DNA from: Promethearchaeota archaeon
Lineage (GTDB): Archaea; Asgardarchaeota; Lokiarchaeia; Sigyniarchaeales; SOKP01
Length of the DNA: 64,000 nt
Reading direction: 5' to 3'
NCBI GenBank assembly: GCA_008080735.1
Contig: SHMW01000010.1
Location: 24,976-88,975 of the forward strand
Shown piece after piece: positions 7,257 through 19,137 of this stretch (position 1 is the first letter of the stretch; the number at the start of each line of letters is the position of its first letter). The notes beneath the pieces were generated by a model. That model saw only the letters and a program-made list of their open reading frames with translations. It was not told where the DNA came from and did not search any database. A program made the position numbers and the translations under genes.

Positions 7257-7415
7257 TCATAAACTCTCATATAATTCTGATGGTTTCCCACCGCACCCAA
7301 AGGTAAAAGACAAAAATTTTCTCTTTTTTTCACACTGGGGGCAGTAATAATTTCCCGATTCCTCTTTATCATCAAATGTAAATCCACATTCTTCGCAGAT
7401 CACATAGCTTTTCAT
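7257..7415 (-). CDS. 52-aa zinc-ribbon microprotein, Cys paralog of the selenoprotein at 10074-10193 (not in ORF track)
   Basis: Hand translation: MKSYVICEECGFTFDDKEESGNYYCPQCEKKRKFLSFTFGCGGKPSELYESL; CxxC...CxxC plus a fifth Cys. Confidence 0.8.
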   Translation of the reverse strand: MKSYVICEECGFTFDDKEESGNYYCPQCEKKRKFLSFTFGCGGKPSELYESL

Positions 7416-7572: not shown

Positions 7573-7704
7573 TTAGGATTCTGATTCTTTTTCAGACTCC
7601 ATCTTAAAGAATTCGGTGTATTTCCCACAATTAGCGCAGTAATACTTTCCTGGTTCATCTTCATCATCGATCGCGGTTCCGCATGATCTACAAATAACAG
7701 TCAT
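7573..7704 (-). CDS. 43-aa zinc-ribbon microprotein (not in ORF track)
   Basis: Hand translation: MTVICRSCGTAIDDEDEPGKYYCANCGKYTEFFKMESEKESES; aligns with 7257-7415 (VICxxCG...DD.E..G.YYC..C). Confidence 0.8.
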   Translation of the reverse strand: MTVICRSCGTAIDDEDEPGKYYCANCGKYTEFFKMESEKESES

Positions 7705-8599: not shown

Positions 8600-9091
8600 T
8601 TAACAATATTGTTTAATTGCGTTGAGAATAGTCTCGATATCTGGTCTGTCCGTCTTAGTTTCAGCAATATATTTCCACATAATTTTTCCCGAGTTGTTAA
8701 TTAAAAATTTAGACGGTATAGCTTGCTTAGATTTAATATTTGTTTCTGCTATATTTTCATATATCTCAATATCGAATTTTTCTGCAATTTCTGCGTTCTT
8801 ATCTGAGATTTGTGAAAAATGTAGGTTGTTCTGCTCTTGATATTCCCGCATATGGTTTTCACTGTCCGATGATATTGAAATAAGTTTAACATTGTATTTT
8901 CGGATTTTTTCTAGGTTCTTATTTAAGAGAATAGAATGCTGTTTTCAATGACCTCACCAAGTCCCTCGGAAGAAATCGATAAGTAATCAACTATAATTAT
9001 CTATTATCTCTGATAAATCAATTATATTTCCGAGAATGTCTGTAATCTTAAAGTATGGTGCGTTTTTTCCAACCATAAGTCCTTCATTCAT
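8600..9091 (-). CDS. Peroxiredoxin-like (AhpC/TSA) selenoprotein with a UxxU motif and a third in-frame TGA
   Basis: ATG 9091 is in frame with ORF 8600-8851: MNEGLMVGKNAPYF...NYS*LLIDFFRGTW*GH*KQH...LISISSDS...AIPSKFLIN...DRP. TGAs at 8987-8989, 8954-8956 and 8945-8947; SECIS downstream. Confidence 0.85.
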
Positions 9092-9377: not shown

Positions 9378-9893
9378 TTATAATTTTTTATCAATTTGCT
9401 CTGTTAGCAACTTGATTGAGGGCCTATCTTCCCTTGTACCAATATATCTCCATGCAATTTTCATTTCCTTTCCAATTAGAAAGGTGGAGGGAATCGCTAA
9501 TTTAGTCTTAAGATAGATTATATCTATGGCGCTTCCAAAGGTATACACATCAAATTTCTTCGCAATCCTCGCTCCTCTGTCAGAAACTAAAGGAAATGTA
9601 TATCCAAACTTACCGGATAATTCTTTTAAATGGTTTTTACTATCACTGGCAATTGCTATAAAGAACACCTTTCGTTTTTGAAATTCAGTTATATTTTTAT
9701 TAATTCTCTCTAAATGTTCTTTGCATGGAACTCAAAATGCGCCTCTAAAGAAATCTAATAGGATACCCCCAGAATCCTTCAAAACTTTTGTAAAATCTAA
9801 AATATTTTCGTTGATATCTACCAGCTGGTCAATAGGGATTTGAGATCCCACTTTTAATCCTTTATCAGAATCTTTATGCTCAATATCATTCAT
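9378..9893 (-). CDS. Peroxiredoxin-like (AhpC/TSA) selenoprotein with a UxxC motif
   Basis: ATG 9893 is in frame with ORF 9378-9668: ...GLKVGSQIP...GGILLDFFRGAF*VPCKEHL...IAIASDS...AIPSTFLIG...EDRP. A single TGA at 9732-9734 sits at the first redox-Cys position; SECIS downstream. Confidence 0.9.
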
Positions 9894-10001
9894 ACAAAAA
9901 GAGATCATGTGGAATGATTTATTTATTCCTTTTTTAAAAAATAACTTAATTATATTGACAGTGATCAGGAAGATAATTCTTATATATTGATGAGAAACCC
10001 T

Positions 10002-10060
10002 TGCAAGGTGGTCAACATAAATCTATAATTTGTATTTATGTCTCATTCCGTTAAAATGCA
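10002..10060 (-). promoter_or_regulatory. SECIS element 3 (3'-UTR of the zinc-ribbon micro-selenoprotein)
   Basis: Minus strand: TGCA...ga ATGAG ACATAAAT ACAAATTATAG ATTTATGT TGAC cacct TGCA. Perfect 8-bp helix, UGAG/UGAC core and an 11-nt loop containing AAA and ending AG. Confidence 0.82.
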
Positions 10061-10073
10061 CAGTATATAGTTT

Positions 10074-10193
10074 TTATCATTTGAAGCTAAAGACCATAAA
10101 ATATTGGATTGATTTTCACAAAGGGCAATAATGATAACCGTTGGTCTTCTTATCCAAATGTAATATTTTTCCGCATTTTTGACAAATTATCAT
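10074..10193 (-). CDS. Putative zinc-ribbon micro-selenoprotein, CxxC...CxxU...U (not in ORF track)
   Basis: Hand translation: MIICQKCGKILHLDKKTNGYHYCPL*KSIQYFMVFSFK* then TAA. TGAs at 10116-10118 and 10077-10079 both align with Cys in paralog 7257-7415; SECIS follows. Confidence 0.8.
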
Positions 10194-17467: not shown

Positions 17468-17573
17468 CTTTTTCTATAATTGCTTGTTCTTTTTTAAAAC
17501 TTTTATTATAAATTTCTTAATTTTAATATTCTTTAATCCTCTAAATTTAATGGCACAAGTAGCTTTAAGAAAA

Positions 17574-18347
17574 TCAATAATCTAGAGAAAATAATTTGGT
17601 TATAATAGAATCGACCGAAGCGAGGGATTGAGCGTTCTCTGGTAGATCTATAAGTGGCTTTCCTTGTAGATCAAATTGAGATATTATCTCATCATCTGGG
17701 ATTTTTCCAATCACTTGTAAGTCCAACCTTGCAATATGATCCGTTAGAGTTTGAAAACTTCCCTTGACCTTGTTCAGAATTAATCCGATATACCTGGAGC
17801 TTGTAAATCTTTGTGCCGATTCTTTTATTGAACTCGCGGTCTTTATCCCTCTGACGGACATATCTGATATGATTAATACAATATCTACATTTCTTATCAC
17901 TTTACGATTTATTTGCTCTAAACCTGCCTCACAATCAATTAATATGAAATCATAATCTTTAGAAATAGAATCTATAACATTTCTTAAAAGATTATTCAAC
18001 GGACAAAAACATCCTTCAATTTTGGGTTGACCAATAGATAAGACTCCAAAAGATTTCGTCTCTTTCACGATATTATAGATTTTATAATCAATATTACGAG
18101 CAATTTTATCCACTTCTAAGGTTCTATTTATTGATTCTTCAATTATTTCCGTTCTCACATCCTCAATGGTTTTTTCGGGAATCAGATTAACCATATAACT
18201 GAGATGTGGATGTGTGGGATCAGCATCTATTAGGAGGAGTTTTTTATTATATTTCTCAGATAACAATTTCGCCAATAGTGTAGTCGTCACACTTTTTCCA
18301 GACCCACCTTTACCCGTAATTGCAATAATTTTTGGACCAATTTCCAT
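17574..18347 (-). CDS. cooC: CooC/AcsF-type nickel-insertion ATPase
   Basis: Deviant Walker A GKGGSGKS, IDADP, GCFCP metal motif, DCEAGLEQINR. Confidence 0.82.
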   Translation of the reverse strand: MEIGPKIIAITGKGGSGKSVTTTLLAKLLSEKYNKKLLLIDADPTHPHLSYMVNLIPEKTIEDVRTEIIEESINRTLEVDKIARNIDYKIYNIVKETKSFGVLSIGQPKIEGCFCPLNNLLRNVIDSISKDYDFILIDCEAGLEQINRKVIRNVDIVLIISDMSVRGIKTASSIKESAQRFTSSRYIGLILNKVKGSFQTLTDHIARLDLQVIGKIPDDEIISQFDLQGKPLIDLPENAQSLASVDSIITKLFSLDY

Positions 18348-18363
18348 TTCATATCCTACTCTT

Positions 18364-19137
18364 TTATTTTTCTATCTTCTTTCTTCTCTCTAGAATTTCT
18401 TGGATATTCTGGCATGCGGATATATAGGGACATATTTCACATGCCCATTGATAGTCGCAGTCAATACGTTTCTTCCAATCTTCAATCTTTTTTTTCCATC
18501 GCTGATTCATCTCTGCTTTCATAGTTGAAACACACGTGAGGAATTCCGTGATAATTTGCTTATCCGAATTAATCATAAATACTTTCATAGAATTGATAAA
18601 CCCCTCAAATCGTTTCTTATAGCTATGTATTATAGCTTTACCAAAAAATTCAAACGAGAATCCTTTCTTAATTACTTCATCGCTTATTCTACTCCAAAAT
18701 CGTCGTGGTATTGAGCGAATAGAAAATCCTTCAATATCATTTGAGATGGAAGAGAAATGTCGTAGCTGAGTAAAAAGAGAATCATCCAATTGATCTGACT
18801 GAATCAAAATAAATATTCCGAAATTAATTGCTTTTGTATTGATTTGCTGAATTTCGTTCCCTAATACAAAAACCAAATCTCTATCATCATCTAACTTTTT
18901 GTTTGTAGGATAAATCAAAGAAAATGAAGTATTTGACATTCCTCCGAGTTCTATTCCAAGTTCTTCTTTAAGAACTATCCCTTTGTTTTTGTCTATCTCA
19001 ACACTTATTTCGCAATTTTTGAAATAATTTGTTAGTGAATCATTTATTTCATACACACTAAGCGGTTGGGAAGATGTTTTTTTATCCTCAAAAAATACGA
19101 TTATACGTGCGAGATGATCATTAATATTCACTATCAA
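18364..19137 (-). CDS. Short acetyl-CoA synthase (CdhC/AcsB)-related domain protein
   Basis: LKEELGIELGG...SFSL pattern recalls an internal ACS beta-subunit domain; C-terminal CxxxxxCxxCxxxxxC; directly upstream of cooC. Confidence 0.5.
   Translation of the reverse strand: MIVNINDHLARIIVFFEDKKTSSQPLSVYEINDSLTNYFKNCEISVEIDKNKGIVLKEELGIELGGMSNTSFSLIYPTNKKLDDDRDLVFVLGNEIQQINTKAINFGIFILIQSDQLDDSLFTQLRHFSSISNDIEGFSIRSIPRRFWSRISDEVIKKGFSFEFFGKAIIHSYKKRFEGFINSMKVFMINSDKQIITEFLTCVSTMKAEMNQRWKKKIEDWKKRIDCDYQWACEICPYISACQNIQEILERRKKIEK

Follow-up and report, generated by a model that had tools for sequence, protein, structure and literature searches.

The window analysed here, a stretch of 64,000 nucleotides of Lokiarchaeia DNA, carries on its minus strand (10074..10193) a 39-codon gene for a zinc-ribbon microprotein, which very probably belongs to an archaeal, lineage-specific family of selenoproteins with selenocysteine (Sec) as the last residue. 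Comparison of ortholog sequences established the gene, the exchange of TGA and TGT at its last codon, the second stop codon adjoining it, and a covarying SECIS element tied to TGA. The original prediction of an unannotated SECIS-bearing zinc-ribbon microprotein was confirmed, by ortholog covariation and coding constraint, for the open reading frame, both in-frame TGAs and the SECIS. The microprotein would be the eighth family of the Asgard selenoproteome. Its small size would allow the Sec, Cys and truncated forms to be made by peptide synthesis, so that its chemistry is directly testable.

The last codon of the microprotein gene

The open reading frame runs from ATG at 10193 to a TAA at 10076-10074 (codon 40). 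Cys codons are found at 4, 7 and 23 and TGA at 26 (10116..10118) and 39 (10077..10079), the latter directly followed by the TAA, giving a Cys4-type ribbon with the end F-K-U-stop. The gene was assigned to clade A of its family. Two Cys-only paralogs without SECIS are on the same strand: one of clade D (7573..7704), with an acidic tail and no Cys or Sec at +13, and one of clade B (7257..7415), with Cys at +13 and then a G-x-K-P tail. A third Cys-only paralog is on contig C117 of the same genome. Between the microprotein gene and both window paralogs sit two Prx-like genes with in-frame TGAs. When the microprotein was aligned to paralog 7257-7415, both TGAs, which are 13 residues apart, fell on Cys, and Phe was shared at +6, +9 and +11, in agreement with what had been predicted. 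Consensus sequencing error at either TGA is unlikely, because both were present without difference in contigs of two public runs (from one study, one run being possibly the source).

Orthologs were collected from 135 genomes of one Lokiarchaeia family by a profile search in which stops were read through, so that no bias was placed on the last codon. Full-length matches were found at 57 places in 56 of the 135 genomes, in 8 genera. The 57 distinct orthologs had a median identity of 47%. The profile search did not find an ortholog in 26 other members of the class, and no clade-A match was found in 265 other Asgard genomes searched, which does not imply absence. In layout, the family members are basic zinc ribbons with about 37 residues (CxxC-x13-CxxC) and a Lys-Sec-COOH end; length was 37 in 55/57, and M1, C4, C7, G17, C21, C24, K36 and U/C37 were invariant. 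Entropy at the three codon positions over the orthologs (0.93/0.74/1.32) indicated protein-coding constraint on the microprotein.

Lys-TGA-TAA/TAG ended 52 of the 57 orthologs and Lys-TGT-stop ended 5, while Lys-TAA/TAG was found in 0/57. The stop after the terminal codon varied (46 TAA, 11 TAG), and so did the preceding Lys codon (37 AAA, 20 AAG). This synonymous change indicated that the fixed TG(A/T) is not due to lack of time. Since TGA was exchanged with TGT and never with TAA or TAG, the conserved Sec would be codon 39, the last residue. Elsewhere in the family, the orthologs carry no UGA besides the terminal one, and the gene upstream is mostly divergent, which makes the terminal UGA the sole target of the SECIS. 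On a tree that is weak, about 1-3 events suffice to explain the forms with TGT (Cys), and all the genomes are kin.

The family was also found in metagenomes. A search of JGI data with a degenerate pattern that permitted TGA at the fourth knuckle, and that was blind to sequences ending in TAA/TAG, brought the additions, with three ENA loci, to 59 distinct sequences, of which 55 ended in TGA and 4 in TGT; none had TGA at knuckle 4. The SECIS at these loci, which are out of sample, lies mostly 33-51 nt behind the stop. A strain-specific DNA pattern had no match in the metagenomes, and two chance pattern matches in bacteria were without SECIS. One metagenome ortholog (L140:3001-3115) has a frameshift with the SECIS intact, and one in Cys form (L235) has an internal stop; each is an error or a pseudogene.

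The SECIS element and its distance from the terminal UGA

The SECIS of the microprotein gene (9988..10058, minus strand) is of the lokiarchaeal, eukaryote-like type I. Its core (10046-10011) consists of AUGA, a 9-bp stem, an A-rich loop and GAC, and a small conserved hairpin follows on the 3' side. Cores of the same form, with a small further hairpin behind each, belong to the two Prx-like (AhpC/TSA) genes, also on the minus strand. The first (9378..9893) encodes a UxxC selenoprotein of the known family PrxL, with TGA at 9734-9732 and the SECIS core at 9366-9330. The second (8600..9091) encodes a UxxU selenoprotein, with TGA at 8956 and 8947 and the core at 8584-8549. The likeness of the three elements had been predicted, together with distances of about 30 and 70 nt; the microprotein core was measured to lie 30 nt past TGA39 and 69 nt past TGA26. 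As a separate observation, a small CC...GG hairpin right after the GAC core (9988-10010) recurred in nearly all family SECIS, including those of VhuD and VhuU; it is not in the consensus of Huang 2024 as we read it.

Taken alone, the microprotein SECIS had a folding energy not above that of shuffled sequences (z -0.5), and the Rfam search did not match it. Over 46 orthologs, however, 9/9 stem pairs had two-sided changes, and 91.8% were paired versus 29-50% when the stem was slid. We built a covariance model only from elements of the microprotein family, the window's own element being included by construction. Out of sample, the model matched the elements of both Prx-like genes and of three VhuD and two VhuU genes of this genome, as well as the new metagenome orthologs. 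An own SECIS was found in 52/52 TGA forms and 0/5 TGT forms. At the loci of the TGT forms, the sole SECIS lies behind the next Prx-like gene. The proposed survey of orthologs for TGA/Cys interchange and SECIS co-occurrence was thus borne out for TGA39, while TGA26 proved to be private to this genome.

The spacing from stop to AUGA was 27-51 nt in the family, with an outlier at about 137 nt (L035); 51 of 52 TGA forms had the element 27-49 nt past the stop, and none had it closer than 27 nt. Measured from the UGA, the distance to the SECIS was 30 nt here and 30-54 nt across the family. For the Prx-like genes, scored by script, the distance from stop to SECIS was -4 to 18 nt in 16/17. A minimal UGA-SECIS distance has been proposed for lokiSECIS, with true UGA stops on or beside the element (Mariotti 2016, PMC4989117). 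The spacing in the microprotein family, never below 27 nt as against -4 to 18 nt in the Prx-like genes, can be read as selection that keeps the terminal UGA outside this minimal distance. The 52 natural UGA-stop-SECIS cassettes would then cap the proposed minimal lokiSECIS spacing at about 30 nt. In eukaryotes, a UGA-SECIS spacing of about 50 nt or more is needed. The bound would be shorter than this figure, and bears on eukaryote-type recoding before SBP2.

We therefore weighed these results against the suggestion, made in the original prediction, that the second TGA may act as the stop. In that case TGA39 would be an ordinary (tandem) stop, the hairpin would serve TGA26 or another role, and the product would be a 38-aa single-Sec protein. 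The proposed minimal distance itself, and the UGA stops that adjoin lokiSECIS elements in VhuD and VhuU (Mariotti 2016, PMC4989117), speak for such a stop, as does the fact that protein databases hold the microprotein as unnamed 36-aa calls, ended at the TGA by gene callers. However, the 51 other TGA-ending orthologs keep a covarying SECIS without any other UGA to act on, the terminal codon swaps only with TGT, and the SECIS was lost exactly in the TGT genes. An end of TGA followed by TAA/TAG is also rare as background, being found in only 21/2406 long ORFs of this genome (0.9%). An ordinary stop at TGA39 is thus extremely unlikely, and the conservation was the reverse of what had been suggested. 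Very probably, the SECIS 30-52 nt behind the terminal UGA recodes it as Sec and the following UAA/UAG ends translation.

A further alternative is a switch by selenium status. Reading the UGA either as stop or as Sec would yield two products, one of 36 aa ending in Lys and one of 37 aa ending in Sec, with different stability or binding; alternatively, what the ribosome does at UGA-UAA would tune the genes downstream. The basic charge of the protein suits binding to nucleic acid or an acidic partner, the gene opens its transcription unit, recoding could be marginal at so short a spacing, and SelS has a stop-versus-Sec isoform. On the other hand, the Cys end fixed in five lineages abolishes the switch yet retains Lys-Cys, which argues that the chalcogen itself is selected, and the genes downstream vary. 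We consider a switch quite unlikely.

The machinery for Sec was identified in this genome as SecS and EFSec (both on contig C15) and SelD with TGA (C63); a PSTK-like gene on contig C93 scored below cutoff. The search for tRNA-Sec gave no match above cutoff and no UCA tRNA, in a genome that is 93% complete and has few tRNAs called. SecS, EFSec and Sec-SelD were all retained in the four of the five Cys-form genomes that were checked. At one locus (L211), a microprotein gene with a TGA end and no SECIS of its own stands 51 nt before a Prx-like gene, and a single SECIS lies behind both. This arrangement looks intermediate in form, like the element shared by HdrA and VhuD.

The private TGA at codon 26

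All 56 other orthologs, like the 59 metagenome sequences, have Cys as the fourth knuckle ligand. The closest relative of the window gene is a sister with Cys and 78% identity, and the window gene stands on a short branch. From these sequences, TGA26 is a recent, strain-private change from Cys to TGA. Sec as a conserved knuckle ligand was rejected, as TGA26 was found only in this genome and the metagenome pattern permitting TGA gave one non-coding chance match. The knuckle Sec by which the original prediction had defined the family is accordingly not a family trait, and neither is the Se-ligated Zn/Fe switch that it had proposed. As to the supposed novelty of a knuckle Sec, TGA26 itself is present here, but there is a weak precedent in a candidate of the FmdB family (TIGR02605; two GOS reads with CxxU; PMC2398784). 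That candidate is likewise a small zinc ribbon with Sec at a knuckle, but is bacterial and has no terminal Sec. TIGR02605 (cutoff 31.3 bits) had no match at the locus in three genomes.

TGA26 is probably read as Sec too, since the reach of a 3' SECIS extends to every in-frame UGA that precedes it; only this strain would then have a protein with two Sec and a Cys3-Sec zinc site. One lokiSECIS has been proposed to serve up to six UGAs (PMC4989117), and in Methanococcus three positions are recoded alike (PMC9622424). Among the Prx-like genes here, 20 are UxxC and 13 UxxU, so that a second-site change from Cys to Sec is common in SECIS-bearing genes. One metagenome ortholog (L253) has TGA at knuckle C7.

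It was also considered that the family is real but the window copy is a fresh pseudogene, in which TGA26 is nonsense and the product a 25-aa peptide from a locally decaying cluster. TGA26 is unique, and the same cluster has another unique stop, a Gly-to-TGA change at 8989-8987 (minus strand) in Prx-like gene 8600-9091, where the 32 other Prx-like genes have Gly, Ala or Val. The window copy also has a 2-residue insertion, with 39 codons where most orthologs have 37. The neighbour's Gly-to-TGA and this insertion could mean that the local cluster is decaying. Against decay, the sequence past codon 26, the K-U-stop end and the 9/9-pair SECIS are all intact, and the proposed service of many UGAs by one lokiSECIS would cover TGA26 at its distance from the core. 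In addition, about 100 ordinary genes compared with sister genome G006 had no convincing internal stop; three G006 alignments did contain stops, but two of these look like shadow frames and the third like an N-terminal extension. As both private stops are TGA and both are in SECIS genes, read-through as Sec is favoured over decay, although the numbers are small. A pseudogene is therefore a possible but rather unlikely explanation.

We lean slightly toward the joint reading, in which the family is one of 37-39-residue proteins with terminal Sec and a SECIS 30 nt away, and the same SECIS turns Cys26-to-TGA and the neighbour's Gly-to-TGA into Sec missense changes. If this is true, the window gene would encode a natural two-Sec Zn(Cys3Sec) microprotein, and would offer a snapshot of new Sec sites arising once a gene has a SECIS.

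Related proteins and possible function

The AF2 model of the microprotein is a three-strand zinc ribbon (strands 2-4, 19-23 and 28-34; pLDDT 86). Its best fold matches were generic zinc ribbons, namely bL33, USP fingers and the rubrerythrin C-domain, with Z up to 4.7. The ESM Atlas also gave only generic zinc ribbons, at about 0.9. Foldseek against the PDB gave no match at E≤0.001, and no Pfam or NCBIfam family reached its cutoff for the microprotein. Rubredoxin and the rubredoxin domain of rubrerythrin were matched weakly by fold (Z 2.2-3.1), and NF045767 was matched in part (E about 1e-3, below cutoff), which would fit a rubredoxin-like Fe(Cys)4 one-electron carrier, with the tail Sec as a partner contact. 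However, the bL33 and USP matches were as good or better, the CPxCG knuckle is not conserved, and the microprotein is basic (net charge 0 to +7 in the orthologs, median about +4), whereas rubredoxins are acidic. We consider an Fe carrier unlikely.

The paralogs keep the ribbon and differ at +13: clade B has Cys and G-x-K-P, clade C has Asp and the same tail, clade D has an acidic tail, and clade E is truncated. For this reason the tail is most likely the working part of the protein. In LysW, the last residue is the working arm. Unnamed ribbon paralogs were also noticed at L081:3833-4165 and at many g11/g2 loci, where up to 74 genomes have B (Cys-G-x-K-P) and C (Asp-G-x-K-P) genes in tandem, with an AlaX-like editing gene downstream of them; a paralog form of 32-33 aa ends with F-S-stop (G000 C117:1635-1736).

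As a tentative reading, the ribbon would be a structural Zn scaffold for an exposed selenolate arm, which the neighbouring Lys would stabilise and which would do thiol/selenol redox work without an obligate partner. The arm would cycle between selenol and selenenylsulfide or diselenide and be recharged by general thiol-disulfide systems, and it may feed or buffer Prx-like and PDO-type oxidoreductases, no single one of them being obligate. This redox reading is favoured because a Prx-like gene adjoins the microprotein gene in 14/57 loci, because of the SECIS shared at L211, and because the neighbours at L133 are a Rieske protein, two thioredoxin-fold (PDO-like) genes and a thioredoxin reductase. 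A dedicated Prx-like partner is weakly supported, as 15/56 carrier genomes had no Prx-like match.

Instead of redox turnover, the task of the terminal Lys-Sec arm might be to bind soft metals or metalloids (Cu, Hg, Ag, As, Ni) or pass them on. The CC/CU-COOH ends of SaoC and DUF466 would be the parallel, and the paralogs with Cys or Asp at +13 would be ligand variants. Cys in clade B and Asp in clade C at the identical +13 position are easier to reconcile with a ligand than with a redox residue, proteins with a terminal CU adjoin metal or pyruvate transporters, and CooC-like and CdhC-like genes are often near the microprotein gene. Yet the Sec has no neighbouring Cys for chelation, no metal transporter is among the recurrent neighbours, and the CooC/CdhC neighbours look like conserved gene order. 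Metal binding is thus a doubtful alternative to the redox reading.

Co-occurrence lent no support to an obligate partnership with PrxL or with paralogs B/C: PrxL was found in 41/56 carrier genomes versus 46/79 non-carriers, and paralogs B/C in 40/56 versus 34/79. Functional links to the divergent LRR gene (44/57 loci) and to the AlaX-like gene (35/57 loci) were rejected; both reflect gene order, and both genes persist without the microprotein gene. Separately, a CooC/MinD-like ATPase gene adjoins a stand-alone CdhC-domain gene in the window (17565-19137, minus strand), an arrangement conserved with GDH and LRR genes in many relatives.

The Asgard families reported with lokiSECIS are SelD, VhuU/FrhA, HdrA, VhuD, PrxL, AhpF-N and DsbA-like (Mariotti 2016, PMC4989117; Huang 2024, PMC11227280), the seven of Huang 2024 having been found by homology to known ones. 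The microprotein shares with them the type I AUGA_GA SECIS in the 3' UTR, the machinery and the Sec/Cys exchange, but is not homologous to any of the seven, has 37 aa with Sec last, and has its SECIS 27-51 nt past the stop where theirs is on or next to it. An inventory of 119 prokaryotic families from 2026 has none like it (PMC13188914). The claim of a new selenoprotein family thus held against both inventories. A literature search for an archaeal zinc-ribbon selenoprotein with SECIS found no paper, subscription journals being outside its coverage. Earlier surveys were unlikely to find the family because they were seeded by known families or database Cys homologs, and such surveys and gene callers were unlikely to see it because reading the UGA as stop removes just one residue.

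Among known proteins with terminal Sec, SaoC (NF040734, Cys-Sec-COOH, UGA-UAG) and KCU-star/DUF466 (NF033934, Lys-Cys-Sec-COOH) likewise have UGA followed by a stop and Cys counterparts, and are missed by annotation pipelines (Haft, bioRxiv 10.1101/2022.07.06.499078). They are not homologous to the microprotein, however, and have a bacterial SECIS and a Cys-Sec pair, whereas the microprotein has an archaeal Lys-Sec on a zinc ribbon, the residue before Sec being an invariant Lys and not Cys. Sec is the majority state in the microprotein (52/57) versus 3/52 in SaoC. Neither NF040734 nor NF033934 was among the NCBIfam matches of the window protein. NF041197 (CxxC_Se_CxxC, RxU) is also small, with two CxxC and one Sec, but its Sec lies, judged by the model name, between the motifs and not 13 residues after the second; NF041197 (cutoff 40 bits) had no match at the locus at E≤1 in three genomes. 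The one-domain zinc-finger microproteins of archaea (CPxCG; Brz, HVO_2753; PMC6562870) and the LysW ribbons are similarly tiny stand-alone Cys4 ribbons. None of these is known as a selenoprotein, no curated family was reached, and the microprotein lacks the EDWGE end.

Scans of Asgard genomes that start from the SECIS seem not to be exhausted, as the SECIS model also exposed a second, apparently unreported family. Its members (L120:1294-1491 on G000 C102, which is outside the window, and L278-L288) would be small proteins that cross the membrane once and carry a Gly-rich linker and U-x-C, or variants of this motif. In each of the 11 other family genomes matched, a SECIS follows the UGA at 57-118 nt. 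By appearance the protein is superficially like SelK/SelS (TM, Gly-rich, late Sec). A well-formed SECIS (L127, G000 C7:24724-24803, minus strand) lies behind an ORF ...DPGC-TGA-TGA that runs 33 codons on, which is possibly a selenoprotein, or two genes. Weak matches of the model at L128 (G000 C12:31762-31835, minus strand) and L126 (G016 C60) had no upstream in-frame UGA target found. A single match in a complete genome of another family (L107, G055 C1:2055111) lies behind a short G-U-C frame.
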